A stretch of DNA of 63,460 nt, counting the filler. It is 4 parts of 4 records of this genome, joined end to end, with 100 filler letters (N's around TTAATTAATTAA, not from the genome) between each part and the next. Parts side by side here need not be neighbours in the genome. Positions count along the whole stretch, not along the records: positions 1 to 22,640 come from SRR31156797_23087; 3 more parts are not named here. One strand, 5' to 3'. Shown piece after piece: positions 1 through 22,639 of the stretch. The translations under genes were made by a program, and so were the position numbers. Numbering within the stretch: the stretch's first letter is position 1; every line of letters starts with the position of its first letter. The notes beneath the pieces are model-generated. The model made no database searches. It saw only the letters and a program-made list of their open reading frames with translations, and was not told where the DNA came from.

Positions 1-558
1 GTTTTCCGCCATGGCGATATACATGGCCCAGATAACAGAAGCAGGAGGGTTGATGGTCATGGAAGTGGTGATTTTTTCGATGGGCAACCCCGCAAAAAGA
101 TCTTCCATATCCTTCAGAGTGTCGATGGCCACACCGCACTTGCCACATTCACCCCTGGCTTTGGGAGAGTCGCTGTCGTAGCCCATGAGAGTTGGCATGT
201 CAAAGGCCGTTGAAAGACCGGTCTGCCCTTCCCGGACCAGAAGATGAAACCGTCGGTTCGTATCTTCAGGGGCACCCAGACCTGCAAACATCCGCATGGT
301 CCAGAGACGACCGCGATACATGGAGGGCTGAACTCCCCTTGTGAATGGATAGTCTCCGGGAAAACCGATGTCGGTAGAAAAATCCTGCTCCCTTAGGTCC
401 GCATGCGTATAAATATCTTTAATTTCTTTGTCTGAAATCGTGGAAAACCGCTTCAACCGTTCGGGACTTTTAGAAAAAATCTTGCTGAGTTTTTTCTTCC
501 ATACCGTGTGTTTTTCATTGATGTCCTGGAAAATTTTAGGATTAAAGGTCAAAGCCAT
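1..558 (-). CDS. B12-dependent acyl-CoA mutase large (substrate-binding) subunit, isobutyryl-CoA-mutase-like; 3' end outside window
   Basis: Not in the ORF track. Manual translation from ATG 558 (GGAG RBS) gives MALTFNPK...GFPGDYPFTRGVQPSMYRGRLWTMRMFAG...GQTGLSTAFDMPTLMGYDSD...TSMTIN, which are the hallmark MCM/ICM motifs. The frame is open to position 1. Confidence 0.93.
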   Translation of the reverse strand, partial: MALTFNPKIFQDINEKHTVWKKKLSKIFSKSPERLKRFSTISDKEIKDIYTHADLREQDFSTDIGFPGDYPFTRGVQPSMYRGRLWTMRMFAGLGAPEDTNRRFHLLVREGQTGLSTAFDMPTLMGYDSDSPKARGECGKCGVAIDTLKDMEDLFAGLPIEKITTSMTINPPASVIWAMYIAMAEN

Positions 559-577
559 GTCAATCTCCTTTATACGC

Positions 578-1723
578 TCAACCTTTGATAAGGTTTCTTG
601 CCACCACCAAACGCATGATTTCGTTGGTTCCCTCATAGATCTGGCATATCTTGGCATCGCGCATGTGACGCTCCATGGGATACTCTTTGCTGTACCCGTA
701 ACCTCCCAGAACCTGCACCCCTTCAACAGCCGCCCGCATGGCCACGTCGGATGAGTACATCTTGGCCATGGCAGCCTCTTTTTCATAAGGCTTTTTATAG
801 TCCTCCAACCAAGCTGCTCGAAGGGTCAACAATTCAGCGGCGTCAAGTTCTGTTGCCATATCGGCCAGTTTCCACTGGATGGCTTGAAAGGATGAAATGG
901 GTTTACCGAACTGCTCACGGGTCTTCGCGTAAGCAACAGCGTCTTCCAGAACCGATCGGCCGATCCCGATGGCTTGGGACGCGATCCCGATTCGGCCTCC
1001 GTCCAAGGTGGTCAGCATTTGCTTGAAACCCTCCCCCTCTTTTCCAAGGAGGGCATCCGCCGGCAATCTTGCGTTTTCGAAAACCAGTTCCGCTGTCCCC
1101 GATGCCTGGATGCCCATTTTCTCTTCCACCCGCCCCACTTTGAAACCGGGAGTGTTTTCCAGATCCACTACAAAGGAACTGATGCCCTTGTGCCCTCTCT
1201 CTTTGTCAGTTACGGCAGCAATCACCGCATATCTGGCGACATTGCCGTTTGTGATGAACTTCTTCTCACCGTTGATGATCCATTCATCTCCATCTTTAAC
1301 GACAGTGGTCCGCATGCCCGCCGGATCGGAACCGGCGCTGGCCTCCGTTAATCCGTAACACCCCAGATATTCTCCGGAAGCGCAGGGCTCAAGATATTTC
1401 TTCTTCTGTTCCTCTGTTCCATAGGCATACACCGGAAAACAGTAGAGGGAATTGTTGACGCTCATGATCACTCCGGTGGAGGCGCATCCCCTAGACACCT
1501 CAATGAGGGCTAGCACGTAACTCACATAACCCATACCACCACCGCCATACTCCTCCGGTACGGCAATACCCAGCATCTTGAGTTCCCCCAGTTGATTCAC
1601 TATGTTGGTGGGATGGGCGTGGGTCTGGTCCAGTTCAGCCGCTTTCGGCCGTATCTCCGCTTCCGCAAAGCGGGCCGCCATTTCTCTCACCATCTGCTGT
1701 TCTTCGGTTAACGCAAAATCCAT
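578..1723 (-). CDS. acyl-CoA dehydrogenase (short/branched-chain-like)
   Basis: Motifs LTEASAGSD, GEKKFITNG, REQFGKPI, GGYGYSKEYPMERHMRDAKICQIYEGTNEI. Start moved to ATG 1723 (GGAGG upstream). Confidence 0.95.
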   Translation of the reverse strand: MDFALTEEQQMVREMAARFAEAEIRPKAAELDQTHAHPTNIVNQLGELKMLGIAVPEEYGGGGMGYVSYVLALIEVSRGCASTGVIMSVNNSLYCFPVYAYGTEEQKKKYLEPCASGEYLGCYGLTEASAGSDPAGMRTTVVKDGDEWIINGEKKFITNGNVARYAVIAAVTDKERGHKGISSFVVDLENTPGFKVGRVEEKMGIQASGTAELVFENARLPADALLGKEGEGFKQMLTTLDGGRIGIASQAIGIGRSVLEDAVAYAKTREQFGKPISSFQAIQWKLADMATELDAAELLTLRAAWLEDYKKPYEKEAAMAKMYSSDVAMRAAVEGVQVLGGYGYSKEYPMERHMRDAKICQIYEGTNEIMRLVVARNLIKG

Positions 1724-2023
1724 ATCTATGTGAGACCTCCTCAAAACTCAGGTTCTCGTTTCTCAAGGAACGCCGATATCTCTTTCCGAACCTCAAGGAT
1801 CAACAACCACGGCGTTAAATCATCAGTGCCGTTCATTAATACATCCGGATTCATGGCATTGATCGCCTTCTGCCGTCAGTGAGACAAAAAGATATTTGGA
1901 GGCCTGAAGGCATGGCTTGGAAATCGTTTGGAATGGGAAGAAGCCTGACCAAAAATTACCGGTTTATTCTCAATTCTTAAGCCCGGACCTCATCTTTTGT
2001 CTTCGACTTCTTGGGGCTTTCGC

Positions 2024-2422
2024 TCATTTTCCCGGCAATCCAAGACGTTCTGCAAACTCTCCAAAACCGACTTCAAGGAGCTTTTCAGGGGCCGTCAGAG
2101 AAATGAAAACGATATTCCTGTCCGCCAGCAAATCCTGCACTTTGTTAGCGAAATCTTCAAGATTCTCAGCATTTGCCAAAATCTCGAGAGAATCAGCGAA
2201 AAAAAACAGCCTCATGGGAGGAACCTCATCGGCTTTTCCTTCAGAGATCTCCCATCCGGCATCTGTTTTAACTGTATTTACAGCATAGATGTTTTCATAG
2301 TATTGTTCTAACAAAACACCGGTATGGAGATCCTGAGTGGCCTCCATACCAAGTAGCGTATTCCACACACGATCTATCACTTCCTTTAATTCACTGTTAT
2401 CAGTGACTTCAAAACCATCCAT
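2024..2422 (-). CDS. hypothetical acidic protein (~132 aa)
   Basis: Co-oriented ORF with AAAGGAG RBS before ATG 2422. No recognised family. Confidence 0.7.
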   Translation of the reverse strand: MDGFEVTDNSELKEVIDRVWNTLLGMEATQDLHTGVLLEQYYENIYAVNTVKTDAGWEISEGKADEVPPMRLFFFADSLEILANAENLEDFANKVQDLLADRNIVFISLTAPEKLLEVGFGEFAERLGLPGK

Positions 2423-2499
2423 TTTCAAACTCCTTTCTTTTTGGGTGTTCCATGGATCTTCACGACACCGGATCAGTTGGATTCAAAATCATAAGATCT

Positions 2500-3744
2500 T
2501 TATGATGAAAAATAGGTCCTGATGATGTTGTGAGCCCCGATCAGGCTTAAGACATCACTGGTTCCGTCTTCAATTAAGGACGCCCTTGAATCTCTGTAGA
2601 TTTTTTCTATGGGATACTCTCTACTCAAGCCGTACCCGCCATAAATCTGTAAAGCTTCGTCCGCATTCTTGTACGCCGCCTGGGTACAATAAACCTTCGC
2701 GGATACAGCGTATTCTATAGGCATGGGCATAGCTGTGAAAACATATTCAACGGCCGCTCGTGAGAAAGTTCTGGCAGTCTCCACTCTCACAAACATGTCA
2801 AAAAGTTTCTTTTGAATAAGTTGGTGTTGGCACAGCGGTTTGCCTCCTTGGATTCTTTCCTTTGCATATTCAAGTGCCAATTCAAAAGCCGCTCTGGCCA
2901 CTCCGGTGAACACCGAGGCCATGCCGGAATTGGCCACGCTGAGTACCTGCTGCACCCAGAATTCGTAACGTTCCGGTCCCACGAGCATGTATTCATCAGG
3001 AATTTCAACATCATCAAAGAAAAGCTCCCCCTGGGGCAGATCGATCTGACCTAACTTCTCGAGGATGGGTCCCTTGGACACTCCAGGCAAATCGAGAGGA
3101 ACAACTGCAATACCGCCCCCTTTCATGCCTTTTGATGGGTCAATCCCAAGAAAAAGCAGCGTATGGGTTGCAGTCGGCCCATTGGAAACCCATGCTGATT
3201 TCTGACCGGAGAGTATCCATTTGTTTCCATCTTTGCGCGCCTTAACATTGTGCTTTATTTTCGGATCCCTGAATGAAGGCAATCCGGCCACCAGAGAATC
3301 CGAACCGTGATTCGGGTCCGTCATCCCCCAGCAACCGACTATTTTCCCTTCAATATCTTCAACGTAAGGCTTCACCAGCTCTTCAATCAACCGTTTATTC
3401 TTGGGGGCAATGCGCAAACACCATGCCGCCGGATAGACGTCCACATCTTGAGCGAGAGCCAAACCTGCCGAACCCCACCCCATCTCTTCCCACACAATAT
3501 GGTGCTCTAACGGCCCCATTCCCAAACCGCCGAATTTCTCGGGAATGAAACTGGCGTGAAGGTCTATCTCTCTGAACTGTTTCTTGCACTCCCACCAAAG
3601 AGAATCCTTCTTGACAATGTCATGGGGGTTCATTTTGTCCAGCTTCTCACCTGCTGGCCGAAACACTTCTTTTGCAAATTTGTGAACACTGTTTTTTAAT
3701 GCCTCTTGTCGCTCCGTAAGCCTTAAATTCAGTTCCGTATACAT
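2500..3744 (-). CDS. acyl-CoA dehydrogenase family protein
   Basis: Motifs MTDPNHGSD, GQKSAWVSNG, RIQGGKPL, GGYGLSREYPIEKIYRD...IEDG. Start at ATG 3744 after AGGAGG. Confidence 0.93.
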   Translation of the reverse strand: MYTELNLRLTERQEALKNSVHKFAKEVFRPAGEKLDKMNPHDIVKKDSLWWECKKQFREIDLHASFIPEKFGGLGMGPLEHHIVWEEMGWGSAGLALAQDVDVYPAAWCLRIAPKNKRLIEELVKPYVEDIEGKIVGCWGMTDPNHGSDSLVAGLPSFRDPKIKHNVKARKDGNKWILSGQKSAWVSNGPTATHTLLFLGIDPSKGMKGGGIAVVPLDLPGVSKGPILEKLGQIDLPQGELFFDDVEIPDEYMLVGPERYEFWVQQVLSVANSGMASVFTGVARAAFELALEYAKERIQGGKPLCQHQLIQKKLFDMFVRVETARTFSRAAVEYVFTAMPMPIEYAVSAKVYCTQAAYKNADEALQIYGGYGLSREYPIEKIYRDSRASLIEDGTSDVLSLIGAHNIIRTYFSS

Positions 3745-3815
3745 AAGATCCCTCCTTTTAAACCCGCATAAAATATTGTTCGTGGTCCTTACAGATTGTT
3801 GGGGTGACCATTCAT

Positions 3816-5858
3816 TCAATCCGTGATAGATGCACTGATGATCTGGGCCACATCCAGAACCCTGATTTTGTCTTCCAGGCCTTTCTCCCTGATTTCATCG
3901 TCCAGCATTATCCTGCAATAGGGGCACACCGTCGCCAGCGTTTCAGCAGAGGTTGTCAAGAGTTGATCACAACGGATGGCGCTGATACGTTTGCCCGTTC
4001 TTTCCTCCATCCACATTCGCCCCCCGCCGGCACCACAGCAAAAACTCCTGTTCCTGTTTCTTTCGGCTTCAACGAGCGCAACCCCCCTTACAGACCGTGC
4101 AACCTGCCTCGGCGCATCGTACAGATCATTGTAACGCCCCAGGTAGCAGGAGTCGTGATAAACAACCGGCCCATTTCCATCGAACCCACGGTCAAACTTC
4201 AGGATATTTTCACGGATCGACTGCTCTATAATTTCCGTATGGTGAAACACTTTGTAATGGCCACCAAACTGTGGGTATTCATTCTTGATGGTATTGTAGC
4301 AATGGGGGCAGGCGGTGATGATCTTTTTCACGCCCAACTCATTCCAGTATGCCACATTGGTTTCCATCATCCTCTGGGCCAGGAATTCATTGCCAAGGCG
4401 GCGCGCCGTTTCACCACAGCATTTTTCTTCATTACCAAGACAGACAAATTTTATACCCGCCTTTTTCAACAAACGGACCAGGGCCAGGGACGTTTTTTTG
4501 CTCCTGTCATCGAATGAGCCGGCGCACCCCACATAGAATAGATATTCATAATTGCTTTCCTCATGGGGAATTTTCACGTCCAGCCTGTCGAACCAGTCTG
4601 CACGGCTGTTTGATGCCAAGCTCCAGGGATTGGACAGGTTTTCCATTCCCTTGTAGACCGAAGTCAACTCCTTCGGAAACCGGCTTTCTTCTTGAACCAG
4701 GTACCGGCGCATATCCACCACATGGTCTGCATGCTCAATCAATAAAGGGCAGATCTCCATACAATTGCCGCATGTTGTACAGGACCAGAGGACTTCATCC
4801 TCTATCACTTGGCCTGTCAGCATGGCGCCTTCCCAGAAATCGAGGGTTTCCCGAGCCTTGTCAGGCTTATGCTGAATCCGCTGCAGCCCCGCCCGCCACA
4901 TGAGAGGCGTCTTCGTTTTCAGATGGTCCCTGGAGTCCATGACAAGACGCTTGGGCGAAAGCGGTTTGCTGGAGATATGTGCAGGACAGTTGTCCTGGCA
5001 GCGGCCGCATTCGGTACAATTGTACATGTCGAGTGCACGCTTCCAAGATAACTCTTCAAGTCTGCCGACCCCCAGAATGAGTTTTTCCCTTTCAAAGTCC
5101 TGCTTTGCCAGGACCCCCTTTTTACTGAGTTTCCCTGCGAAAACTCCGGGGAATGAGGTAATTACGTGAAAATGCTTTCCATAGGGCAAATAGTTTAGGA
5201 AGATCAAAATCATTACCACATGCCCCCACAAACTGATCCCCTGTAGGGTAGAAGTGGATTTGGCGTCGATGGTAAATCCAAAACCCGTAAGGATACGCTG
5301 CCCGATGAGCCCCATAAAGCCACCCACTTTTTCAGGGCTTTCAGGATTGAGGATCAACAGAGTGCCGCTGTAAACAATTTCCAGCAACATCATGACAAGG
5401 ATCCACACTAAAATCAGATTCGCCTCCCAGGATAGGGTCATGCGTTCGGGTTTAACAAATACTCTTCGGCCGAGGGCCGTCAAAACACCGACAATAACCG
5501 CGAGAACAAAGAGATCTTTGAGTGGTGTAAAAATCAAACCGAGAAACGGATCATGATGGAACCCGGGCAGAGTCCAACCTTCAACAAAGCCACGACCTAC
5601 AAGCTGGATTGTGTTGATGCTTAAAACGATGAAACCCCAGAAGATCAGAATATGAGCGAGACCATGAGGAAGTTCATATCGTTTGAAAAGCCTTGTTTGG
5701 CCCAACGCGAATTTGAGCATCCGGGCCAAGCGCACACCGGGTTGATCCCATCGAACATCGTGCTGCATGGAAAAAAACGGCAGAACGCGACGAAACATGG
5801 ACAAGGCAAAACAGAACAATGCAACAAAAAGCAAGACACCCATCGCTAGAGGATTCAT
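3816..5858 (-). CDS. membrane FeS/CCG oxidoreductase (FadF/DUF224 type; likely ETF:(methyl)menaquinone oxidoreductase)
   Basis: N-terminal multi-TM domain with His residues, 2x[4Fe-4S] motifs (CTECGRCQDNCP, CTTCGNCMEICP) and two CCG domains. Directly downstream of etfBA. Confidence 0.88.
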   Translation of the reverse strand: MNPLAMGVLLFVALFCFALSMFRRVLPFFSMQHDVRWDQPGVRLARMLKFALGQTRLFKRYELPHGLAHILIFWGFIVLSINTIQLVGRGFVEGWTLPGFHHDPFLGLIFTPLKDLFVLAVIVGVLTALGRRVFVKPERMTLSWEANLILVWILVMMLLEIVYSGTLLILNPESPEKVGGFMGLIGQRILTGFGFTIDAKSTSTLQGISLWGHVVMILIFLNYLPYGKHFHVITSFPGVFAGKLSKKGVLAKQDFEREKLILGVGRLEELSWKRALDMYNCTECGRCQDNCPAHISSKPLSPKRLVMDSRDHLKTKTPLMWRAGLQRIQHKPDKARETLDFWEGAMLTGQVIEDEVLWSCTTCGNCMEICPLLIEHADHVVDMRRYLVQEESRFPKELTSVYKGMENLSNPWSLASNSRADWFDRLDVKIPHEESNYEYLFYVGCAGSFDDRSKKTSLALVRLLKKAGIKFVCLGNEEKCCGETARRLGNEFLAQRMMETNVAYWNELGVKKIITACPHCYNTIKNEYPQFGGHYKVFHHTEIIEQSIRENILKFDRGFDGNGPVVYHDSCYLGRYNDLYDAPRQVARSVRGVALVEAERNRNRSFCCGAGGGRMWMEERTGKRISAIRCDQLLTTSAETLATVCPYCRIMLDDEIREKGLEDKIRVLDVAQIISASITD

Positions 5859-5924
5859 CTTCCATCCCTCTTCCTAAAGATTCCAAAACCCCAAAATATC
5901 TTTTTCTCCTTCAAGCTCTTGAAA

Positions 5925-6884
5925 TCAGGCGAATTCCTTTTTTAATTTCTCGGTCAATTCAGGGACCGCCTTGAACAAATCCTCTACCAGACAAAAGTCT
6001 GCTGTGGTGTGTATGGGCGCTTCTTCATCTTTGTTGATGGCAACGATGATTTTGCTGTTTTTCATACCAGCCATATGTTGTATCGATCCGGACAGACCTA
6101 CGGCAACATAGAGTTCAGGCGCCACTTTCTTGCCTGTTTGCCCTACCTGGAGGTCGTTTGAAACCCACCCGGAATCAACCGCAGCCCGGGTGGCGCCCAC
6201 CGCACCGTCAAACAGATCCGCAAGTTCTTCCAAAATCTTGAAATTTTCCGCGCCTGCCATTCCACGCCCTCCAGAGATAACAACTCGGGCTTCGGTGGGA
6301 TCCGGACGTTCACTCTGGGTCTCCTGCATTTCTACGAACCGCGTCTTGCCATCCCCCAACGAAATGTCCAAGGCCTCTATGGGCGTTTCCCGTCCCACAG
6401 ACTCGGCCGGGGCAAAATGGGTTCCTTGAACAGTCACAACCTTAATTTCCGTTGTTATCTCCACGTTGGCAATTGCGCTTCCGGCCCACATTTCCCGTGT
6501 AAAATCCCGCCCATCAAAGGACAGAACACCCGTGGCCATGCCTGCCTCCAGTTTGGCGGCAACCCGCGGCATGAGGTCTCTTCCTGTGGTACCGGAACTC
6601 ATGCCAACGATCTTGGCATCGCAGAATCTTGCGGCATCAGCCACGGCATGTCCCCATGTTTCCGCGGTGTAATTTTCCAGCTGGGGATCATCGGCAGTAA
6701 ATATCTTGGAAGCACCGTAATCCTTTAGGGTCTCCGCGATGCCATCCACATGGCTTCCCACAACGAGCAGATACAACTCACCGCCCAGTTTCCCGGCAGC
6801 TTCCCTGCCAAAGGTTAGGGCGTTGAGCGTAGCCCGTTTCAACTCTCCCTTCCAATGCTCTGCAACCATTAAAATACCCGGCAT
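5925..6884 (-). CDS. etfA: electron transfer flavoprotein alpha subunit
   Basis: Motifs SGGRG, GATRAAVDSG, QVGQTGKKVAPELYVAVGLSGSIQHMAGM, AINKD. Confidence 0.97.
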   Translation of the reverse strand: MPGILMVAEHWKGELKRATLNALTFGREAAGKLGGELYLLVVGSHVDGIAETLKDYGASKIFTADDPQLENYTAETWGHAVADAARFCDAKIVGMSSGTTGRDLMPRVAAKLEAGMATGVLSFDGRDFTREMWAGSAIANVEITTEIKVVTVQGTHFAPAESVGRETPIEALDISLGDGKTRFVEMQETQSERPDPTEARVVISGGRGMAGAENFKILEELADLFDGAVGATRAAVDSGWVSNDLQVGQTGKKVAPELYVAVGLSGSIQHMAGMKNSKIIVAINKDEEAPIHTTADFCLVEDLFKAVPELTEKLKKEFA

Positions 6885-6950: not shown

Positions 6951-7697
6951 CTATAAGATCTTTGCTTCCTCTTTTAATCCTTTGACCAGCCCATCCACAT
7001 CCGGAACCACATGTCCCCCTTGACGCTGCGGGGGTGCAGTAAATCCTTTGATGAGCACTTTGGGCGAAACGTCTACACCCAGTTCGGCCAGTGGCATGAT
7101 TTTGACCTCTTTTCGGTCCGCCTTTAGCACGTCGGATACTTTGGGATAGCGGGGTTCATTCAGGCGAAGATCCGTACTAATAATTCCTGGCAGATCAATC
7201 TCCACCACTTCAATGCCTCCATCCACTTCCCGATGCACTGTTGCAGTGCTGCCATTCAATTCAACTTTTGAAGCAAAACATGCCTGGCCCCAGCCCATAT
7301 GCTCGGCCAGCATTTGAGCCACCTGGTTGTCATCCATGTCAACAGCCTGTTTCCCCAGCAACACCAGATCCGGCTGTTCCTGTTCGATAATTTTGGCAAG
7401 AATCAGAGCAATGGCATTGGAATCAAGTTGATCTTCGGTTTTCACCAGAATGCCCCGATCCGCACCCATGGCAAGCCCCGCTCTGATTTCGGTGATTGAA
7501 GCGTCATTACCTATACTGACAACGAACACTTCTCCTCCTCTGTCTTTTTTGATGCGCAATGCTTCTTCGATCGCGATTTCATCAAAAGGATTGATCTTAA
7601 AGTTCATGCTGGATAGCTCAATGCCCGACCCATCCGGCTTAAGTACAATTTTCATGTCAGGGTCTGTGACGCGTTTGGCCGTTACTAAGATCTTCAC
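6951..7697 (-). CDS. etfB: electron transfer flavoprotein beta subunit
   Basis: Motifs INPFDEIAIEEA, LAMGAD, GKQAVD, REVDGG, DLRLNEPRY. Confidence 0.97.
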   Translation of the reverse strand: MKILVTAKRVTDPDMKIVLKPDGSGIELSSMNFKINPFDEIAIEEALRIKKDRGGEVFVVSIGNDASITEIRAGLAMGADRGILVKTEDQLDSNAIALILAKIIEQEQPDLVLLGKQAVDMDDNQVAQMLAEHMGWGQACFASKVELNGSTATVHREVDGGIEVVEIDLPGIISTDLRLNEPRYPKVSDVLKADRKEVKIMPLAELGVDVSPKVLIKGFTAPPQRQGGHVVPDVDGLVKGLKEEAKIL

Positions 7698-7775: not shown

Positions 7776-9353
7776 CTACCGCACCCGTCTTGCCTCGTTT
7801 TTCCAGTATCGCGCTCTGAGTTCCCGTTTGAGAATTTTTCCATAGGGACTCTTGGGCAACTCATCGACAAAATCGACGGACTTTGGTCGCTTGTACCCAG
7901 CCATTTTACCCCTGCAAAATTCAAGGATCTCTTCTTCACTTGCCTGCTGATCCTTTTTCAGTACAGTGACAGCCTTGCCCGCCTCTCCCCATTTCTGATC
8001 CGGCACCCCTATCACGGAGACCTCGCTGACAAAGGGATGTTCAAGAATTATCTCTTCGATCTCCCTGGGATATACATTTGACCCGCCACTGATATACATA
8101 TCTTTGGTCCGGTCCATGACAAAAAGGTAGCCCTGTTCATCAAGGTAACCCACATCTCCTGTGTGAAGCCAACCACCTTTGAGGGTTTTCGCGGTTTCCT
8201 CAGGCCTCTCCCAATATCCCTGCATCACCGTTTCGCCCCGAATACAGATTTCTCCGGATTGGCCTACAGGGACCCTGTTTTCACTTTCATCCAGAATCGT
8301 TATTTCGATTCCCGTCCTCGGGCACCCTGCCGATCCCAGTCTTTTGATCTCATCATCTGTTCCCGAATAGACATGTTCTTCACGCGGGAGAAAAGTACCC
8401 GTCATGGGAGATTCACCTTGGCCGAAAATCTGAACGAAAATCTGGCCGCATTTCTTGAGTGTAAATTTGAGGTCTTCCACATACATGGCGGACCCGCCAT
8501 AGGCAATGTATTGCAAAGAACTGATATCGTATGCGTCGATATCAGGGGACTCAACGAACATCTTGATCATGGTTGGCACCATGAACATGTTGGTCACCTT
8601 CCACTTTTCGACGGTCTCGGCCACATGCTTTGGATCAAAACTCAAGGAATCGAAGATGACATTGGTGGCTCCTTTTGCAGCGATGGGAAGGGCGTGAAAA
8701 CCGGCGCCATGTGACAAAGCGCCTACATGTAGAGCAACGTCTTTGGCCGTTGTTGGAACCAGGTCCGCCAGATACATCAGGATTACCGCCATAAGATTCC
8801 CATGTGAAAGCATGGCGCCTTTGGGTCTTCCGGTGGTCCCTGAGGTATAGAACAGCCACGCCAGATCGTCTTTTTCCACATCAACGGTCTGGTCGTCGGT
8901 GGTCCGGTACTTCTCAATCAACGCCTCATAATCATGATCGCCTGGAGCCGGGTTTTTGAGGCAAATGAAATGCTTCACACCCGGGACTTGATCACGGATG
9001 GTTTTCACCATGTCTTTCATGTTTTCCGCAAATACAAAAGCAGCACATCGGGGGTCATTCAAGTGATAGACAACCTCTCCGGCAAAAAAACGGAAATTCA
9101 ACGGAACGATGACGGCCCCGATCTTGAAACAGGCGAACATGACCTCAATATACTCCGGGCAATTCCCGGACAGTATTCCGACCCGATCACCCTTTTGGAC
9201 TCCAAGGGCTTTTAAGGCACTGGCGAAGGAATCGGTGCGCACATTCGCTTCATTGTAGTTAACGGTTCTATTACCTTGAACAAGAGCAAGCTGATCCGGG
9301 TAATGCTTTGCCGACTGTCTAAGGAGAGAACCTATATTTATCCTCTTGGGCAT
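7776..9353 (-). CDS. AMP-forming acyl/aryl-CoA ligase
   Basis: Motifs YTSGTTGRPKG, FGQGE, GWLHTGD, DRTKDMYISGG, PKSPYGKILK. Start at ATG 9353 after GGAGG. Confidence 0.93.
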   Translation of the reverse strand: MPKRINIGSLLRQSAKHYPDQLALVQGNRTVNYNEANVRTDSFASALKALGVQKGDRVGILSGNCPEYIEVMFACFKIGAVIVPLNFRFFAGEVVYHLNDPRCAAFVFAENMKDMVKTIRDQVPGVKHFICLKNPAPGDHDYEALIEKYRTTDDQTVDVEKDDLAWLFYTSGTTGRPKGAMLSHGNLMAVILMYLADLVPTTAKDVALHVGALSHGAGFHALPIAAKGATNVIFDSLSFDPKHVAETVEKWKVTNMFMVPTMIKMFVESPDIDAYDISSLQYIAYGGSAMYVEDLKFTLKKCGQIFVQIFGQGESPMTGTFLPREEHVYSGTDDEIKRLGSAGCPRTGIEITILDESENRVPVGQSGEICIRGETVMQGYWERPEETAKTLKGGWLHTGDVGYLDEQGYLFVMDRTKDMYISGGSNVYPREIEEIILEHPFVSEVSVIGVPDQKWGEAGKAVTVLKKDQQASEEEILEFCRGKMAGYKRPKSVDFVDELPKSPYGKILKRELRARYWKNEARRVR

Positions 9354-9578
9354 GCCCAAAACCTCCATGAATATTTCCCAAACGAAAGGGCAAGAATCTC
9401 TCTACTCCAAAGATTTTTCATTCCTTTCAGGTATTCTTAAAATGTGTCACAAAAATCCAAGTGTTCCGTATATCCGGCATCCCAAGCCCAAATGGAGAGA
9501 CAGGCGGCGCTTTGCTCAAAGGAGCTTTCCAAATGCTTCCAACTGACCTGAGATACGATAGTGTCCGGATTTGGAACA

Positions 9579-13036: not shown

Positions 13037-13042
13037 TTTCAA

Positions 13043-14364: not shown

Positions 14365-14367
14365 TCC

Positions 14368-14617: not shown

Positions 14618-16663
14618 CTAGATCTGGCGCGCCGCGTAGTTGGCCGTATGGATGGCCTTTTCTATCTTCTCCGGACCCGCGCAATCCCCGATTTCGTGAA
14701 ACTCAACCCCTTTTCCCACCAACTGCTCATAGAGATCCCTATTTGAAGATCTGCCGGCCGCCACAATCACGGTGTCAACGGATACAGCGTCTTCATTCCC
14801 TTCGCCATCCACATATGTCAGGGTACCATTCGTTATCTCTTTTACTTTGACCTGGGCAAGAACCCTTACTCCCGCCTCTGCCATGAACTCGTTTAAGACA
14901 ATAAAACGGAGGATGTGGGAGTAAGGTGGCCAACCGATTGTCATGGGATCCCCTTCCTCCAGCAAAGTCACTTCCTTTACTTTTTCAGGATCCACAATCT
15001 CAAGTCCGCGTTCCTCCGGAGCCTTGTAATATTTCTTATAGCCCGCCTCCGGCATCTTCTTGCCCAGTCTGGCCAGCGTAACCGCTGCCTCCGCGCCGTA
15101 CGCGCCGCCAAGAACAGCTACCCGTTTCCCAACGGTTTCGTCCCCGGCCAAGAAGGCATCAAGGGAAATAACATTCGAGCCATTGATACCCGGGATGTCC
15201 GGAATGATCTGCTTGGATCCTGTGGCGAGAACAACCGCATCAGGATTCTTTTCCCTGATTAGATCTTCCGTAACGTCAGTGTTGAGTTTGACCTGGATAT
15301 CCATCTCCGCCATTCTCTTGGATAACCACCTGGAGATATTGAGGAGTTCCCGGGTATAGAGTCTGGGATAGTTGGAGGCGAGGTGCAGGTAACCGCCAAG
15401 CTTGTCGGCTTTTTCATATAAGGAAACCTTGTGGCCCCTCAGGGTCGCCACCCTGGCAAATTCCATTCCGGCAGGTCCTCCGCCCACGACCAGAATGTTT
15501 TTTGCCTTTCTTGCGACCGGCATTCTTCCTTCTTCCCACGTATTGTCCCGGTCGTATTCAAAATTAACGGCGCACCGGCTGGGCCTGTTTGCAAAATCGT
15601 CTTCGAGGCAGGTATTACATGCAATGCACTGACGGATGTCGTCGTACCGCCCCTCAAGGGTCTTTTTTGCGAAATCAGCGTCGGCCACAGAGCCGCGGCC
15701 AATGCCCACGATATCGAAGTTGTCTTCTTCAATCATTTTAACGGCCAAGCGGCCGTCGTTGATGCGCCCCAAACCTGCTACCGGAACTTCGACCACATTC
15801 TTTATCGCCTCTGCCATATAGGTCCACACGCCTCTCGGCTCATACATCTCCGGGATAACAGTCGTGAAATGCTCAAAAACCCCGCAGGTTACGTCAAACA
15901 TGTCACATCCCGCATCTTCCATGGCGGGGGCGATGAATTTACAGAAATCGTCAATGTTATAGCCGCCTTCCATGTACTCGTCGCCTGCCACCCGACAACA
16001 TATGGGGAAATCCCCAACCGCTTCCCTCATCTTGATCAACAACTGGCGGATAAACTCCACTCTTCGATCCCAGTCTCCACCCCATTTGTCATCCCGGTGG
16101 TTCGTATAGGGTGACATGAACTGCTGGGGCAGAAAGCCGTGTGAACAGTGGATCAGGACCGCTTCAAACCCTGCATTCTGAGCTCTCACGGCTGCTTTGG
16201 CATAATCATCGATGATGCCCCAGATCTCTTCTTCCGTAAGAGCTCTGGGGGGAATATTGGGAGGAAAGGGCATGGGTGGCGAGGTATCCGAAGGGGCCAG
16301 CGCCTCCTGTTTAACGTGTTTGGGCAATAGCAACGGATTGCACTCCCTGCCGGCGTGATGCAGCTGGATCATGGCTTTGGCACCACCTGCATGGATCGCT
16401 TCAACCAGTTCATAAAGTGCGACGCCCTGGTTATCATCGAATATGCCAACCGTCCGAGGAAAGAGTTTCGTGGTCTCGCTAATGACCGCGGCCTCCACGC
16501 AGTACAAGCCCCATCCCCCTTTGGCCCGTCTGTAAGTGGCATCGATCAAGGGCTTGCCGGGAAGGCAATCTTCTCCAACAATGTTTGCTATCATCGGGGG
16601 AGCATAGAGCCTGTTTTTTACCTCCAAATTCCGGATCTTGATTGGGTCGGATATCTTCGCCAT
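14618..16663 (-). CDS. Old Yellow Enzyme family FMN/[4Fe-4S]/FAD oxidoreductase (FadH/BaiCD/Ncr-like architecture)
   Basis: TIM-barrel motifs QLHHAGR, HCSHGFL and NHRDDKWGG; FeS motif CIACNTC...CAVN; FAD motif VVGGGPAGMEFA; C-terminal IGDC. Confidence 0.93.
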   Translation of the reverse strand: MAKISDPIKIRNLEVKNRLYAPPMIANIVGEDCLPGKPLIDATYRRAKGGWGLYCVEAAVISETTKLFPRTVGIFDDNQGVALYELVEAIHAGGAKAMIQLHHAGRECNPLLLPKHVKQEALAPSDTSPPMPFPPNIPPRALTEEEIWGIIDDYAKAAVRAQNAGFEAVLIHCSHGFLPQQFMSPYTNHRDDKWGGDWDRRVEFIRQLLIKMREAVGDFPICCRVAGDEYMEGGYNIDDFCKFIAPAMEDAGCDMFDVTCGVFEHFTTVIPEMYEPRGVWTYMAEAIKNVVEVPVAGLGRINDGRLAVKMIEEDNFDIVGIGRGSVADADFAKKTLEGRYDDIRQCIACNTCLEDDFANRPSRCAVNFEYDRDNTWEEGRMPVARKAKNILVVGGGPAGMEFARVATLRGHKVSLYEKADKLGGYLHLASNYPRLYTRELLNISRWLSKRMAEMDIQVKLNTDVTEDLIREKNPDAVVLATGSKQIIPDIPGINGSNVISLDAFLAGDETVGKRVAVLGGAYGAEAAVTLARLGKKMPEAGYKKYYKAPEERGLEIVDPEKVKEVTLLEEGDPMTIGWPPYSHILRFIVLNEFMAEAGVRVLAQVKVKEITNGTLTYVDGEGNEDAVSVDTVIVAAGRSSNRDLYEQLVGKGVEFHEIGDCAGPEKIEKAIHTANYAARQI

Positions 16664-16940: not shown

Positions 16941-16956
16941 AGCAAAGTGTGTGCCA
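16941..16956 (-). promoter_or_regulatory. sigma-54 (-24/-12) promoter for the catabolic operon
   Basis: Minus strand reads TGGCAC-ACACT-TTGCT, an exact consensus match, ~280 nt upstream of the OYE start. Confidence 0.85.
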
Positions 16957-17755
16957 TGAGATTTTAAGAAGGATTTGAGAGACGCTTTCTGCTCGGCAAA
17001 AGCCCTGTAGCAGAAGGGATAGGAAGAAGTGCGCCTTTTTTCAATCAATCAAGAAAATATAAGAAAGAGGGAATCACCCAAGGGATTCCTTTCATTTCCA
17101 GTTTCTTTGCTTGGAACAGGCTTTTGAAATACCAAAGGAATTCCGGGTCGGAATATCTGCTATGTAATAGATATAACATATAAAAAGCCTTATCAAATTG
17201 ACTCGAACACACTCCTAGGATCTTGAAGATCCGATCGCCGTTGGCAGCCCTATTCTCAAAAAAACGATCATTATTGGTGATGCTCCGTATCTTAATGGAC
17301 GATAGGCGGGCGCCGCCTTTCATGACTCCAAAGTTAGGAAATAATTGACGACATAAACATATAAATGAATTAAAACAACAAGATATGGTAAATCCCGTGA
17401 ATCTTATTGGACGATCTAGACAAAATTCAGACAATGAACCCCGGGCCTGTGGTGAGAGTTGTTCAGCATTGGTTGCATTTTTGCGATAATTTTCGCGAAA
17501 TTGGAACAATGATCTCCTTTTTGCCAAGAGTTTTTGCGCAGTTTTTCTTTTGGTGTGCACCTCCCCAAAAGGGAAATGGCCAGCAGCGGAAAATGTTCGG
17601 ACAAGCAACCGGTGTGGGTGCCATTCTCTTCCCAAAGTAGGATTCTCAAAAGATGTTGGCCGAAAAGGCTGCCAAGCAGGGAAAGCAAGTCTCCACTAAA
17701 GAACGAGAACTTCCCCATATCGACACTCAATGCAATATCTAATATTGGTTGCGCT

Positions 17756-17771
17756 TGGCACATATCTTGAA
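17756..17771 (+). promoter_or_regulatory. probable sigma-54 promoter for the cobA-like/cbbQ/cbbO unit
   Basis: TGGCAC-ATATC-TTGAA, with one mismatch in the -12 element, ~200 nt upstream of the first gene. Confidence 0.6.
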
Positions 17772-17976
17772 TAATTTGTCGCCTGTTAGATTTGTCCTTG
17801 ACGATCTGTCTGCATGCCCTTCAGTTTTCGTAGCCATAATCGTCTGTCGTCATTAAAGCGATGGCATACATCCAGATTTCGTTGTCTGGCCTTTTCAGGA
17901 TCGCTGAAGAGCCGGATTCGGTGCCAACTCCATAGGCAGGCTCTCGTTCGGACCCTCAAAAATCCAGCGTCCAGCC

Positions 17977-18351
17977 ATGAACAACATCATGAAAATAAAC
18001 GAAAACATATCAAACAATCAGGAAACAGGGCTCGTACAGATCTATACAAACCCAATGGGAAGAATAAATTTCGCGCCTTATGGTCTGGCCTTTCGTGCTT
18101 CGGGTTATGGGCTTCGGTCTTTGATTACCCGTTTTGTGCATCACGAATTGAAGGCCGGGGAAACGGTTGCTTTGAAGCTTCTTGCGTCCGAACTCACAAT
18201 TGATGCCTCAGCAATCGATGCAAATTCCTCGAATTGGGTTTTTGCTGAATCCGCAGTTAAAAAGGCGTTTCAGAATGCTGTGCAGACAGCTTCTTCGGGT
18301 GAATACGATTTGGTGATTTTGGATGGTGTTCTTGAATTGGTTTCAAACTGA
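17977..18351 (+). pseudogene. degenerate/truncated cob(I)alamin adenosyltransferase (CobA/BtuR)-like fragment
   Basis: GLVQIYT...GLAFRASGYG and YDLVILD match CobA/BtuR, but the P-loop (GxGKGKTT) is replaced by NPMGRINF and the protein stops shortly after YDLVILD. Confidence 0.6.
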
Positions 18352-18400
18352 CTCATTTATAATGCCCTATCAAAAAATACAAAGGAGGACGTCCATCAAA

Positions 18401-19303
18401 ATGAACCTGCAGAGCCATGAAAACAAAGGTCTGGGTATCGATTACAAGGCCGCGGTAGTTAAAAGGGAACCTTACTACCTGCCGGTTAAAGACGAGATCG
18501 AATTGTTCCAAGCTGCGGCAAACTCAAGAATTCCCGTATTGCTGAAAGGTCCTACAGGATGCGGGAAAACAAGGTTCGTGGAATACATGGCCCATTCCCT
18601 TTTAAGGTCTTCGTCTGAAAAGGAAGACAAAAGGGCCGGTTCTATTGAAAATGGAGACAGCAGTGTAAGACGCCCGCTTATAACCGTTGCCTGCCATGAA
18701 GATATGACGGCTACGGACTTGGTCGGACGCTATCTGTTAAAAGACGAACAAACCGTTTGGATTGATGGGCCCCTGACATTTGCCGTTAAAGCGGGGGGCA
18801 TATGCTATCTTGACGAGATTGTTGAGGCAAGGAAGGATACCACGGTCTTGATTCATCCGCTGACAGACTACAGAAGGATTCTGCCCATTGAAAAAAAAGG
18901 GGAACTCATTGAAGCCCACGATGATTTCCTACTTGTCATTTCCTACAATCCAGGGTACCAGAGTGTCTTAAAAGACTTGAAGCACAGCACCCGCCAGCGA
19001 TTTCTTTCCATCGAATTCAATTATCCAGACCGTGACATCGAGTCAAATATCATTGCCCACGAAAGCGGCGCGGGCGAAGATGTGGCTGACGATCTAGCGA
19101 AAATCGGCCAGAAGGTCAGAAACTTGAAGGAACACGGGATACACGAAGGTGTCAGCACCCGCTTGCTTATTTATGCAGGGCAACTCATTAAAGCCGGTAT
19201 AGAAATGAAAAGGGCCTGTCAGGTAGCGATCACTTCGTCCGTAACAGACGACGAGATATATCATAGGGCCATCGAAGAGGTCATCTCAACGATCATCAAA
19301 TAG
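18401..19303 (+). CDS. CbbQ/NirQ/NorQ-family (MoxR) AAA+ ATPase
   Basis: Motifs [68 protein letters not shown]. Start at ATG 18401 after AGGAGG. Confidence 0.95.
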
Positions 19304-19469
19304 CTTCCTGAACCGGTTGCATGATGAGCAAATCAGGATTCATGGGTCCCATATCTTATATTGAATTATGATTCCCTGGCCAATGGAAATCATAGGATTT
19401 TGGAATCGGGATGGAAAATGGCCTAAACGTCAATACAAGAAAAAACACCATAGTGGAGAAAGAGATTTC

Positions 19470-21770: not shown

Positions 21771-21872
21771 CAAATCCCGAGGGCTGAACGGTTGCCCGAT
21801 GTCAGCATATGGATGTTTGCTTTTGGCAAGCACTATCTATTTGAAAGCTGACGCATCCCAGGAATTGAGAGC

Positions 21873-22271
21873 TTAAATCTTTCCAATGACGATATCGGAC
21901 TTTTGAACGAGCTCTAAAATACTCACCATGGGCAGCACCTCAAATTGAAGCGGCACCTTTTCCTCTGCGATCCCAAGCAATTGCAGCCAGAGCTCAGAAA
22001 CGTAAAGGCATACTCCCACATCTTTTGCGCTCTCATACATGGGTTTTGAAGCGCTCGTAATCATCCTGAGTTTCTTTCTGATGATTCCGGCATACTGTTC
22101 CAGCGGAGGTGCCAAGGTTAACTTACCCTCAATAAGAATGGGAATCGCCGCCTCTGTCAAAATGACGGAAGCTTCACACCCCAACTCCCTCGATTTTTTG
22201 GCAACCATTATGCTCGTCAGGATATTATTGATGTTTCCATCGGATACGAAAAAAAGGAGTTTTCGAGCCAT
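21873..22271 (-). CDS. DsrE/DsrF-like protein
   Basis: 132 aa with a DsrE-type pattern (G-x-EASVILT..A, AKDVGV.LY, SDIVIG). The Cys usually found after the LY strand appears as Ser (LYVSELW). Confidence 0.55.
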   Translation of the reverse strand: MARKLLFFVSDGNINNILTSIMVAKKSRELGCEASVILTEAAIPILIEGKLTLAPPLEQYAGIIRKKLRMITSASKPMYESAKDVGVCLYVSELWLQLLGIAEEKVPLQFEVLPMVSILELVQKSDIVIGKI

Positions 22272-22309
22272 AGAGGTTTTTTTCTCCGGCAGGCGATGGC
22301 GGTTGATTC

Positions 22310-22639
22310 TTAGTCTTTTTCACCGTGCCATACATCCATGTGATTTCGATGGTGTGGGGTCACATAACCTTGTTTCAAATAATCTTCATAAAAATCGATG
22401 TCCAAATGGTGCAACTGCGCATGCAGATTTGAATGAAAGGCGGAGTAATAAACGGGGAATCTTCCATATTTATCAAAAAGATAGTGCAATACGGACTTGA
22501 CAGCACTCAAACACCAGTCCGAAGGAGGTTTTTGCAGGAGCTCATTTACCGCTGGCGCAATCTTATCCAAATAAGGCGAATTGACAATTGCCTGTTTTTT
22601 CAATTCCAGAACACGATCAACCAGATCGTCGATCGATTT
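22310..22639 (-). CDS. C-terminal part of a paralog of the 457-aa nitroreductase-like protein (5' end lost at contig edge)
   Basis: Frame is open to the contig end. DWCLSAVKSVLHYLFDKYGRFPVYY...HHLDIDFYEDY...VTPHHRNHMDVWH aligns by eye with DWVIEAVGATIKYYYDNYGRAPVHF...HHVDCDFYDKY...TTPQVRNHLKEYH. Confidence 0.85.
   Translation of the reverse strand, partial: KSIDDLVDRVLELKKQAIVNSPYLDKIAPAVNELLQKPPSDWCLSAVKSVLHYLFDKYGRFPVYYSAFHSNLHAQLHHLDIDFYEDYLKQGYVTPHHRNHMDVWHGEKD

Follow-up and report, generated by a model that had tools for sequence, protein, structure and literature searches.

The first 22,640 nucleotides (nt) of the 63,460-nt stretch of DNA analysed here (the window) carry a minus-strand run of acyl-coenzyme A (CoA) genes, within which lie a 457-amino-acid (aa) protein that we call UNK1 and a radical S-adenosylmethionine (rSAM) enzyme with a SPASM domain. 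Is this cluster a new catabolic system, and what would these two proteins do in it? Anaerobic breakdown of branched, alicyclic and beta-oxidation-resistant acids, such as isoprenoid remains, naphthenic acids and steroid fragments, is poorly understood, and solutions have mostly been found one enzyme at a time. The first-pass annotation, made from the letters alone, took the cluster for an undescribed anaerobic system built around a nitroreductase-like UNK1, the rSAM enzyme and a CbbQ/CbbO chaperone. In our reading it is probably an operon for acyl-CoA catabolism to which two unusual but conserved parts have been added, and it is not categorically new. Its host is probably an uncultured anaerobe of the class Desulfobacteria. 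What the cluster offers is a conserved, testable core, namely the UNK family (~1,700 clusters), a recruited AhbD-like rSAM enzyme and an atypical acyl-CoA dehydrogenase (ACAD2), together with a CoA ligase that provides an easy biochemical handle on the substrate.

We listed the open reading frames (ORFs) and scanned them against Pfam and NCBIfam, with relaxed limits of E<=1 and 1e-3, respectively. Every gene class named in the first-pass annotation of the run was found on the minus strand in the reported place (Table 1). In order of transcription, an enzyme of the old yellow enzyme (OYE) type is followed by a ferredoxin (Fdx), a thiolase, a DUF35 protein, the rSAM enzyme, UNK1, the CoA ligase, EtfB, EtfA, a membrane iron-sulphur (FeS) protein with CCG domains, ACAD2, a small acidic protein (u134), a second acyl-CoA dehydrogenase (ACAD1) and the start of a B12-dependent mutase. 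With intergenic gaps of 0–279 nt, it is plausible that the genes from OYE to mutase form one operon. The mutase ORF (methylmalonyl-CoA mutase family) is cut by the left edge of the window; because it overlaps the ACAD1 ORF by 208 nt, its true start probably lies downstream of 786. The CoA ligase exceeds the cut-off of the NF004837 'long-chain-fatty-acid--CoA ligase' subfamily (515.8 vs 476 bits) and the thiolase that of the NF004720 subfamily (465.7 vs 420 bits); the best NCBIfam model for ACAD1, AcrC, gives 465 bits, below its cut-off of 640. The OYE enzyme carries the Cys motif CIACNTC...C, and its best solved relatives are NCR (6qkg, 1.4e-73) and FadH (1ps9, 1.3e-65). About five N-terminal transmembrane (TM) helices are predicted in the FeS/CCG protein by a hydropathy scan. 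Terminator-like sites are not enriched (19 found vs 21.5 expected), a sigma-70 promoter scan stayed at or under the shuffle expectation, and Rfam at E<=0.1 gave no match on 1-22640, hence no riboswitch in the divergent intergenic region, which spans 1.3 kb. Repeats there amount to the two promoter-like elements arranged as an inverted pair, with nothing further convincing, and three ORFs of 196, 115 and 129 aa in 17045-18203, which have no family match and an odd composition, were treated as non-coding.

UNK1 itself has no match in Pfam (including the nitroreductase model PF00881, even at E<=1), NCBIfam or the PDB sequences, and the absence of a Pfam or NCBIfam model for its family agrees with its description as an unknown family. 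An AlphaFold model built from a 25-sequence alignment (predicted local distance difference test score, pLDDT, 77.9; predicted template modelling score, pTM, 0.82) was compared with 48,161 solved representatives by VIA-align, and all 50 best matches were nitroreductase-superfamily chains. The best were 8cqs_A and 3hj9_B (Z 12.8, 183 residues aligned, root-mean-square deviation 3.0-3.4), followed by ThcOx (Z 11.8), BmdC (11.3), Ava_2154 (11.2), McbC (9.6), FbiB-C (9.5) and BluB (8.0). Foldseek also returned 3hj9 first, at a marginal E of 7.7e-3. The family profile weakly matches the nitroreductase helix 'QN..LAAE..GLG' (E 0.007; NfrA-type chains, E 0.007-0.03), and two paralogues at another locus, L091, score 23.2 and 17.3 bits, under the PF00881 cut-off of 23.5. 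As modelled, then, UNK1 is nitroreductase-like at the superfamily level, and the earlier label was right at that level.

Two arginines, R26 and R29, are invariant in 25/25 sequences (73/75 and 74/75, respectively, in a wider sample) and lie in a motif with the consensus RRRSRRFGLG, which we take to be the phosphate-binding motif for flavin mononucleotide (FMN) of nitroreductases. The family-invariant polar residues are E73, D91, D126, D224, N269, Y403, H427, H428, Y434, H450 and H455, and the C-terminal motif reads 'YGR.P...HH.D.DFY...H...WH'; to our knowledge, its Y403/H427/H428/Y434/H450/H455 set belongs to no characterised member of the nitroreductase superfamily. UNK1 also carries about 250 residues of insertions relative to characterised nitroreductases, and it keeps 37 of the 46 positions that are conserved in >=90% of sequences.

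The family is large. A word-indexed search returned 25 relatives of UNK1, the closest of which (90% and 72% identity) lie only on 2-kb contigs. Species-representative genomes hold at least 550 coding stretches of the family and metagenomes at least as many again, and HMMER over 1.84 billion representatives gave 1,699 family clusters with E<=1e-3, of which 828 reach 1e-10 and 176 reach 1e-30. We found no characterised member; clusters matching one homologue (P0012) are named 'hypothetical protein', one of them with PF00881 on 16% of its members. Hosts include Dadabacteria, Thermodesulfobacteriota, Chloroflexota, Acidimicrobiia, Spirochaetia and one Nitrososphaeria archaeon, as well as the aerobes Ruegeria, Shimia and Prauserella. 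Because of these aerobic hosts the family is not an anaerobe speciality, and the word 'anaerobic', which the first-pass annotation had attached to the system, does not describe the family. No fused form longer than 875 aa was found. The representative search did return an 863-aa protein (P0091) that joins a family member to a catalytic domain of the MpaB/Lcp (rubber-oxygenase) type, and at a single locus (L099:12775-13776) a separate MpaB/Lcp gene lies two genes downstream of a family member. These two cases hint at isoprenoid-cleavage products in aerobes.

To examine the setting of UNK1, we searched 160 loci, fetched with the UNK family as bait and carrying <=10 kb of flank on each side, by phmmer with all proteins of the window (E<=1e-5, each ORF assigned to its best query). 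The bait search proposed in the first-pass annotation gave a divided answer: CoA ligase genes neighbour the family in 43/160 loci, thiolase in 26/160 and DUF35 in 4/160, and the rSAM and OYE genes appear in L091, while CbbQ, CbbO and the 132-aa protein that had been read as DsrE (u132) appear in none. A core of the cluster, made up of UNK beside rSAM, ACAD2 with its small partner, a second paralogue (UNK2) and sigma-54 control, does recur, both in L091, a metagenome contig, and in G130:C109, which came from a search of 209 genomes belonging to the same class as a Desulfobacteraceae metagenome-assembled genome (MAG). Both loci have a UNK1-type gene directly beside an rSAM gene with the same 130-aa N-terminal extension as in the cluster, both have the run ACAD2-u134-UNK2, and in both a 927-934-aa sigma-54 activator lies between the two divergent units. 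In G130, EtfB-EtfA-FeS stand right before ACAD2, same as in the cluster, and DUF362, two DUF2148 genes and a CoA ligase follow rSAM; in L091, an OYE enzyme heads the ACAD2 unit. A sigma-54-like element precedes the UNK1 unit of L091 (perfect match) and the Etf unit of G130 (one mismatch).

Divergence is uneven across this core. Between the cluster and G130, ACAD2 is 85% identical, EtfB 76%, EtfA 75% and the FeS protein 60%, vs 53% for u134, 42% for rSAM, 36% for UNK and 28% for the CoA ligase. Because the first group ranges over 60-85% and rSAM, UNK and ligase over 28-42%, the Etf/ACAD2 block is orthologous to that of G130 and the rSAM/UNK/ligase block far more diverged. Stronger divergence is usual for the substrate-specific parts of a pathway. 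Among the 209 class genomes the UNK family occurs in six, its long form (defined below) in G130 alone. The rSAM enzyme has matches in 37/209, and G130 is the only one in which the match covers the N-terminal extension; the other 36 matches start at about residue 109-136, with 35-40% identity, in ORFs of mostly ~355-390 aa, several of which are longer or stop-interrupted. The AhbD-size homologues in these 36 genomes are probably the true AhbD heme enzymes. The extended rSAM and the long-form unknown thus occur together in 3/3 loci, a small number.

The rSAM enzyme is well supported as such by Pfam (PF04055, 82.6 bits vs a cut-off of 29.5; PF13186, 36.1 vs 21.5). Its cluster-binding motif, C144-x4-C149-x2-C152, is one residue longer than the canonical CX3CX2C, and the N-terminal extension carries CxxC...CxxC (four Cys); both are conserved in all three orthologues, and the seven C-terminal (SPASM) Cys are invariant in 3/3. 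Its scores lie below the equivalog cut-offs of TIGR04545 (AhbD; 251.8 vs 500), TIGR04055 (237.6 vs 500) and TIGR04051 (178.3 vs 515), and its best solved relative is the decarboxylase BlsE. By similarity it stands closer to enzymes of small-molecule chemistry (AhbD/NirJ, BlsE) than to protein maturases.

ACAD2 is the other enzyme that departs from the ordinary. Where the IYEGT motif of ACAD1 has the catalytic Glu, ACAD2 has Asp (IEDGT), and Asp holds this position (IEDGT, IADGT or ICDGS) in 7/7 ACAD2-family sequences matched by pattern (the cluster, L177, L179, L200, L206, L209 and G130). Homologues with 43-53% identity occur in 13 further class genomes, and we examined 15 contexts. In three, ACAD2 is fused to a 2x[4Fe-4S] domain and a PF00881 nitroreductase domain (L177:6296-8608, by Pfam; L200, 765 aa, and L201, 771 aa, by similarity), an architecture for which we know of no characterised enzyme. 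Two more (L202, L209) encode Fdx and nitroreductase as genes of their own beside ACAD2, a thiolase and a CoA ligase, DUF2148 'ferredoxin-domain' genes adjoin ACAD2 in three (L175, L176, L207), an SCP2 gene takes the position of u134 in two (L179, by Pfam; L206, by similarity), and 5/15 have none of these features. A G130-type CoA ligase is present in 6/15 and a thiolase likewise in 6/15. BLASTP found no similarity between DUF2148 and the nitroreductase domain of the fused ACAD2, and DUF2148 is without a solved relative; we equate it with Fdx-nitroreductase by gene position only. The literature searched, in which most subscription journals were outside coverage, does not mention 'DUF2148'. The small protein u134 has no Pfam match at E<=1 and just five relatives among 5.8 billion proteins, always after ACAD2 and with an invariant C-terminal tail. 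The best folds for its low-confidence model (pLDDT 60.6) are SCP2 (Z 7.4-6.3), with SCP2 or SCP2-like chains in 10 of the 13 best rows (Z 7.4-5.0).

Similar surroundings are seen for UNK relatives in other phyla. In a FastTree phylogeny of 157 full-length family members, UNK1, the paralogue pairs of L091 and G130 and 41 further rows form a 46-row 'long-form' clade (support 99); the 41 come from Actinomycetota, Chloroflexota and similar sources outside Desulfobacteria. A CoA ligase and/or an SCPx-type thiolase lies within 6 kb in 23/41 and both do in 16/41, in gene orders that vary between phyla. Loci of the Chloroflexota type run from a CofD-like gene through CoA ligase, thiolase, an ordinary nitroreductase of 270 aa and an unknown of 121 aa to the family member, which is followed by a solute-binding protein and another CoA ligase; this second ligase matches that of the cluster at E 1e-159 to 1e-163. 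Close homologues of the cluster's ligase (E 1e-106 to 1e-163) stand beside UNK relatives in L086, L094, L103 and L106. Other clades have unrelated contexts, such as TRAP transporter/SnoaL/aldehyde dehydrogenase in Ruegeria and racemase/M24 peptidase in a Desulfobacteraceae MAG. At the level of gene content, the theme of ligase, SCPx thiolase, ACAD2 and a nitroreductase-fold/ferredoxin partner in Desulfobacteria mirrors the surroundings of the long-form unknown elsewhere.

Our leading reading, which remains tentative, is that the cluster is a sigma-54-type catabolic operon for an acid beyond the reach of ordinary beta-oxidation, likely hydrophobic and branched or alicyclic, in which UNK1 has a redox role. 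The CoA ligase would activate the acid, and ACAD2 (with u134, possibly SCP2-like) and ACAD1 would dehydrogenate the CoA esters, with the quinone pool receiving the electrons by way of EtfAB and then the membrane FeS oxidoreductase. The FadH/NCR-type OYE enzyme and its ferredoxin may reduce a conjugated dienoyl or ring CoA ester, the thiolase/DUF35 pair may cut a bulky 3-oxoacyl-CoA, and the B12 mutase would straighten a short branched acyl-CoA. UNK1, presumably FMN-dependent, would serve as a desaturase-type or electron-relay partner in the ligase/thiolase/ACAD2 module, a role that we infer because its nearest folds include desaturating members of the superfamily. The AhbD-derived rSAM enzyme would act, together with UNK1, on a small-molecule substrate (decarboxylation or C-H activation type) without maturing UNK1, since it is AhbD/NirJ/BlsE-like, the family mostly does without it and no modifiable residue is specific to rSAM-linked members. 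A hydrophobic, branched or alicyclic substrate is hinted at by the SCP2-like u134, the SCPx-type thiolase, the long-chain-type ligase, the terminal mutase with a short-chain ACAD, and the one MpaB/Lcp fusion. The unusual (hetero)aromatic or branched acid guessed at in the first-pass annotation is conceivable, though these hints favour the class just named. What the data show directly are the gene families, the fold class, the neighbourhoods and the fusions; the reactions, the flavin, the class of substrate and the operon itself are deduced from them.

Several findings weigh against this reading. Flavin binding, a metal at the four invariant His and the substrates are predictions at most. The association of rSAM, OYE and ACAD2 is limited to three loci (the cluster, L091 and G130), and among the 160 bait loci rSAM, OYE, ACAD2 and u134 each occur once, all in L091. 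Neither ligase nor thiolase is near 18 of the 41 long-form rows, despite 10-kb flanks in L005, L006, L007, L009 and L087. Identity between UNK1 and its nearest relatives of known gene context reaches only 36-38%, its branch is very long (1.2) and it deviates at 9/46 highly conserved positions, so that it may have another role than they do. As ordinary PF00881 domains, the nitroreductase parts fused to ACAD2 lie outside the UNK family, so the fusion argument is valid at the superfamily level only, and the SCP2 reading of u134 rests on a model with pLDDT 60.6 and Z under 8. The run had also been described as led by sigma-54. A perfect -24/-12 element does head it and no gap exceeds 279 nt, but two such matches in 63 kb are within chance (1.8 expected; >=2 in 58/100 shuffles), and no sigma-54 activator gene was found within the window; the weight of the call comes from the position of the element and from the activator genes of L091 and G130. 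Finally, neither an enoyl-CoA hydratase nor a 3-hydroxyacyl-CoA dehydrogenase is recognised by Pfam in the 22.6 kb of contig at hand, which therefore does not encode a complete beta-oxidation-like cycle; the missing genes may lie beyond the left edge, where the contig continues.

It is tempting to speculate further that UNK1 and the rSAM enzyme are an oxygen-independent pair that performs radical decarboxylation/desaturation on a hydrophobic, branched or alicyclic acyl-CoA or its free acid and so opens a carbon skeleton that blocks beta-oxidation, with the ligase/thiolase/nitroreductase-fold module as a beta-oxidation variant, but we consider this bolder version decidedly unlikely. If true, such a pair would add a new anaerobic strategy to those of fumarate addition, carboxylation and ATP-dependent ring reduction, and CoA ligase, SCPx thiolase and nitroreductase-fold protein (with or without ACAD2) would be a widespread, undescribed variant spanning Desulfobacteria, Chloroflexota and Actinomycetota, with a flavoenzyme of the nitroreductase type standing in for the hydratase and dehydrogenase steps.

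Could UNK1 and its paralogue instead convert no substrate at all and be flavin redox modules that serve ACAD2, rSAM or both, either reducing the rSAM cluster or taking the electron of an oxidative AhbD-type reaction? The ACAD2 contexts are suggestive of this: relatives are fused to Fer4 and nitroreductase domains in 3/15, separate Fdx/nitroreductase genes are present in two more, and DUF2148 proteins hold the same place by ACAD2 in L175, L176 and L207. UNK2 directly follows ACAD2-u134 in L091 and G130, and UNK1 adjoins rSAM in all three loci. However, UNK1 lacks an FeS-type Cys motif, and cysteines are not conserved across the family; its many invariant polar residues resemble a substrate or metal site and not a plain relay. 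Most family members have neither ACAD2 nor rSAM nearby, and EtfAB with the membrane FeS protein is already encoded for the ACAD electrons. We regard a pure relay as unlikely, though a serious contender.

Maturation of UNK1, as the first-pass annotation proposed, is improbable. Here the rSAM/SPASM enzyme would modify UNK1 as anSME or QhpD do, and CbbQ/CbbO would remodel or activate it. The adjacency of rSAM and UNK1 is kept in three loci though the gene order is flipped, the N-terminal four-Cys extra domain of rSAM is conserved in the three orthologues, and SPASM enzymes, going by family names, often act on proteins or peptides. Yet more than 150 family loci, and hundreds of genomes, hold the family without this rSAM, hence there is no general need for it. 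The positions specific to the five rSAM-linked proteins are D115, P239, T247, E253, F296, P326 and W336, none of the Cys/Ser/Tyr type, and the rSAM bits vs AhbD (252), NirJ2 (238) and TIGR04053 (231) are about twice those vs MftC (135) and PqqE (110).

The chaperone half of this proposal fares no better. CbbQ is clear in the divergent plus-strand unit (AAA_5 99.1 and CbbQ_C 98 bits vs cut-offs of 22 and 20.6), and no RuBisCO, NOR or other known CbbQ/CbbO client was found among the ORFs of contig 1-22640. CbbQ and CbbO are absent from all 160 loci holding a UNK relative, the UNK family profile matches in 0/24 CbbO contexts (some of them short), and G130 carries the pair on a different contig, where ilv genes adjoin it. 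Of the 209 class genomes, 40 have CbbO homologues, in varied contexts. In three of the 24 (L172, L186, L190) a nitroreductase-domain gene neighbours CbbO, which could be counted in favour of a link; these genes are unrelated to UNK. We conclude from this distribution that CbbQ/CbbO are probably neighbours and not members of the cluster, although a local role is conceivable.

Other features of the CbbO contexts are recorded here in their own right. URO-D-like genes neighbour CbbQ/CbbO in 4/24, directly upstream of CbbQ in L181 and L183, and two of the four add an rSAM of 588-593 aa with PqqD-like and Cpn60-like proteins. The latter two, L174:3226-11876 (G138) and L173 (G142), hold a conserved six-gene set separate from the catabolic cluster: a URO-D-like gene, the 588-593-aa rSAM, a PqqD-like protein, a Cpn60/TCP-1-like chaperonin, CbbQ (not called in L173) and CbbO. 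At L172:13285-14805 (G144), two genes after CbbQ/CbbO, lies a tandem nitroreductase-like protein of 507 aa, in which two stretches match PF00881; its shorter relatives adjoin CbbO in L186 and L190.

Table 1. Features of the catabolic run and its flank on the first contig of the window, in order of position.
Feature	Position	Strand	Evidence or remark
B12-dependent acyl-CoA mutase, N-terminal part	1-786	minus	PF01642 6.5e-52, TIGR00641 9.3e-55
ACAD1, butyryl-CoA-dehydrogenase-like	578-1744	minus	three ACAD Pfam domains; motif IYEGT
u134, small acidic protein, 132-134 aa	2024-2428	minus	after ACAD2; possibly SCP2-like
ACAD2, atypical acyl-CoA dehydrogenase	2500-3819, likely start 3744	minus	Pfam
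Membrane FeS oxidoreductase, HdrD/DsrK-like, 680 aa	3816-5858	minus	PF02754 1.9e-37, two CCG domains, Fer4
EtfA	5925-6884	minus	PF01012, PF00766
EtfB	6951-7697	minus	PF01012 1.5e-38
CoA ligase, AMP-binding	7776-9368	minus	PF00501 1.9e-87
UNK1, 457 aa, divergent nitroreductase-superfamily protein	9625-10998	minus	fold model
rSAM/SPASM, AhbD/NirJ-like	11157-12650	minus	PF04055, PF13186
DUF35, ChsH2-type OB fold + zinc ribbon	12695-13042	minus	PF01796 1.1e-14, PF12172 3.1e-08
Thiolase-like, SCPx/archaeal type	13043-14218	minus	PF22691 3.7e-44
2x[4Fe-4S] ferredoxin, 60 aa	14368-14550	minus	PF00037 2.5e-11
OYE + FAD/NAD(P) enzyme, FadH/NCR type	14618-16663	minus	PF00724 3.6e-60 (204.5 bits), PF07992 1.4e-27 (97.3 bits)
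Sigma-54 -24/-12 element, perfect match (TGGCACACACTTTGCT)	16941-16956	minus	278 nt upstream of OYE start
Sigma-54-like element, one mismatch (TGGCACATATCTTGAA)	17756-17771	plus	before plus-strand unit
CobA/CobO/BtuR-like ORF, truncated	17977-18351	plus	PF02572 1.2e-10, profile positions 2-109 of 172
CbbQ/NorQ-type MoxR AAA+ ATPase	18323-19303	plus	AAA_5 2.8e-28, CbbQ_C 3.8e-28
CbbO-like VWA protein, 800 aa	19368-21770	plus	PF13519 (VWA_2) 22.4 bits, below cut-off of 27
u132, 132 aa	21873-22271	minus	downstream of cut UNK2
UNK2 fragment	22325-22639	minus	C-terminal 105 codons of second family member, cut by contig end

At the right border of the cluster, the structure of the window itself has to be considered. 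Artificial linkers, each N44-TTAATTAATTAA-N44 (six-frame stop), lie at 22641-22740, 48622-48721 and 54895-54994. The window is not one molecule but a chain of four contigs or more, so gene adjacency across the linkers carries no meaning; the cluster's contig ends at 22640, which is also the right border of the earlier observation, and genes to the right of it, the URO-D-like and sugar-transporter genes among them, do not count as neighbours. Since the linker separates it from the cut paralogue, the URO-D-like gene at 22792-24045 was rejected as its neighbour. The 'second copy at the far end' that had been noted is indeed a second family member, UNK2, though only its last 105 codons are present because the contig end cuts the gene. 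The fragment is 35% identical to UNK1 and 64.8% identical to residues 333-437 of the G130 UNK2 (E 4e-41), and it retains 11/11 conserved family positions within its span; since all covered positions are kept and the identity to G130 is this high, UNK2 is most likely intact in the real genome. The neighbouring u132 has no Pfam or NCBIfam match, including the DsrE models, at the relaxed limits, and no homologue in the 160 bait loci. Both the CbbQ/CbbO link and the far-end 'second copy' reflect local adjacency and assembly, and they should not enter later annotation.

A CobA-like ORF, absent from the first-pass list, heads the plus-strand unit just upstream of CbbQ. Its P-loop stretch, TNPMGRINFAPYG, is one that we take to be degenerate against the usual motif, and in 24 other contexts no such ORF stands next to CbbQ. 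Possibly a gene remnant, the ORF is probably outside the catabolic system.

The second contig has its own unusual pairing, in which three URO-D/MtaA-like genes (22792-24045, 27457-28665 and 35637-36731) interleave with a sugar-type ABC transporter, a rhamnose mutarotase-like gene and LacI- and AraC-type regulators that carry periplasmic-binding-protein domains. Just before the end of this contig, a BCCT transporter is split over two overlapping plus-strand ORFs (46968-47555 and 47386-48669) that cover profile positions 1-165 and 163-484, possibly through a frameshift or sequencing error.

Two further explanations of the cluster fit the evidence less well than maturation does. The first, more improbable still, is that a generic ETF/ACAD beta-oxidation block, an OYE/thiolase block and an rSAM/UNK block are merely juxtaposed, without a common substrate. 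The contrast in identity to G130 described above (60-85% for Etf/FeS/ACAD2 vs 28-42% for ligase, UNK and rSAM) could be due to such a mosaic, as could the different gene orders of the three loci and the lack of OYE, thiolase/DUF35, ACAD1 and mutase at the G130 locus. Against this, 14 genes lie on one strand with gaps <=279 nt and a terminator signal that is not enriched, and the same families recur together, variously arranged, across phyla. Recurrence in varied arrangements is the usual mark of functional coupling. The second, which makes a tetrapyrrole or bilin-type molecule with CoA-activated and shortened propionate side chains the substrate of the AhbD-like rSAM, the BilR/BaiCD-related OYE, the chelatase-like AAA+/VWA pair and the CobA-like ORF, is barely credible: although the best models for rSAM (AhbD, NirJ, AhbC) act on tetrapyrrole side chains, OYE scores 349 bits vs the long bilirubin reductase model, a CobA/CobO-like ORF precedes CbbQ, and URO-D-like genes lie directly upstream of CbbQ/CbbO or of the genes preceding them in L173, L174, L181 and L183, all these scores are far under the family cut-offs, the CobA-like ORF is truncated with a P-loop judged degenerate, L091 and G130 have no CbbQ/O or URO-D beside the core, the URO-D-like genes of the window are on another contig, and the role in heme synthesis probably belongs to the AhbD-size homologues of 36 other class genomes.

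How does the cluster, read as a catabolic operon with a redox role for UNK1, compare with known systems? The ordinary parts all have known counterparts, but no cluster enzyme reaches the equivalog cut-off of a characterised pathway enzyme in NCBIfam. The full-text literature that we searched describes no pathway with this gene combination, in line with the earlier remark that no characterised pathway has it, although most subscription journals were outside coverage and this is weak evidence. The electron outlet is ordinary. Couples of EtfAB with a membrane FeS protein (HdrD/DsrK-like) serve syntrophic and sulfate-reducing fatty-acid oxidisers, and the cluster is alike in having EtfB-EtfA, then a 680-aa, ~5-TM Fer4/CCG protein by the ACADs. 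The plus-strand unit shares with CbbQ/CbbO and NorQ/NorD an AAA_5 + CbbQ_C ATPase followed by a large VWA protein; it differs in having no known client in the contig and no conserved link to the cluster.

The thiolase and DUF35 genes follow one another as in BbsAB, Ltp2/ChsH2 and the archaeal thiolase/HMG-CoA synthase/DUF35 systems, with the same SCPx/archaeal-type thiolase. The pair scores far below the Bbs cut-offs, however (BbsA 30 vs 250 and BbsB 224.8 vs 750 bits), and Pfam finds no HMG-CoA synthase or MaoC hydratase partner in the contig. The OYE enzyme shares with NCR and FadH the three-part architecture, the Cys motif and a context of CoA-ester catabolism. It is followed by a 60-aa ferredoxin gene of its own, and it falls under all equivalog cut-offs (BaiCD, mycofactocin-OYE and BilR models). 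The rSAM enzyme shares its radical SAM core and seven-Cys SPASM domain with AhbD, NirJ and AhbC of alternative heme and heme d1 synthesis, and it is 35-40% identical to the AhbD-size (~355-370 aa) homologues of the 36 class genomes; what sets it apart are scores at half the cut-off, the 130-aa N-terminal domain, the C-x4-C-x2-C motif and the setting in a CoA-ester operon.

UNK1, in turn, shares with the nitroreductase superfamily (ThcOx, BmdC, McbC/SagB-type) the alpha+beta fold, at Z 12.8-9.6 over 170-206 residues, the N-terminal Arg motif and the 'N..L....GLG' helix. It differs in its 457-aa length, ~250 inserted residues, lack of a PF00881 match and C-terminal His/Tyr motif. PMC10404671 describes a large nitroreductase subgroup of flavin-dependent oxidases believed to desaturate lipid species, and UNK1 would be alike to the TyzC-type oxidases treated there in having lipid-like acyl substrates, here by gene context only. 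Unlike nitroreductase desaturases, UNK1 sits in clusters of strict-anaerobe type, where O2 is excluded as an acceptor. Azoline dehydrogenases of the superfamily sit with ThiF/YcaO-type cyclases, whereas UNK1 sits with CoA ligase, thiolase and ACAD, and this module of ligase, thiolase and nitroreductase-fold protein may be a general, unstudied theme.

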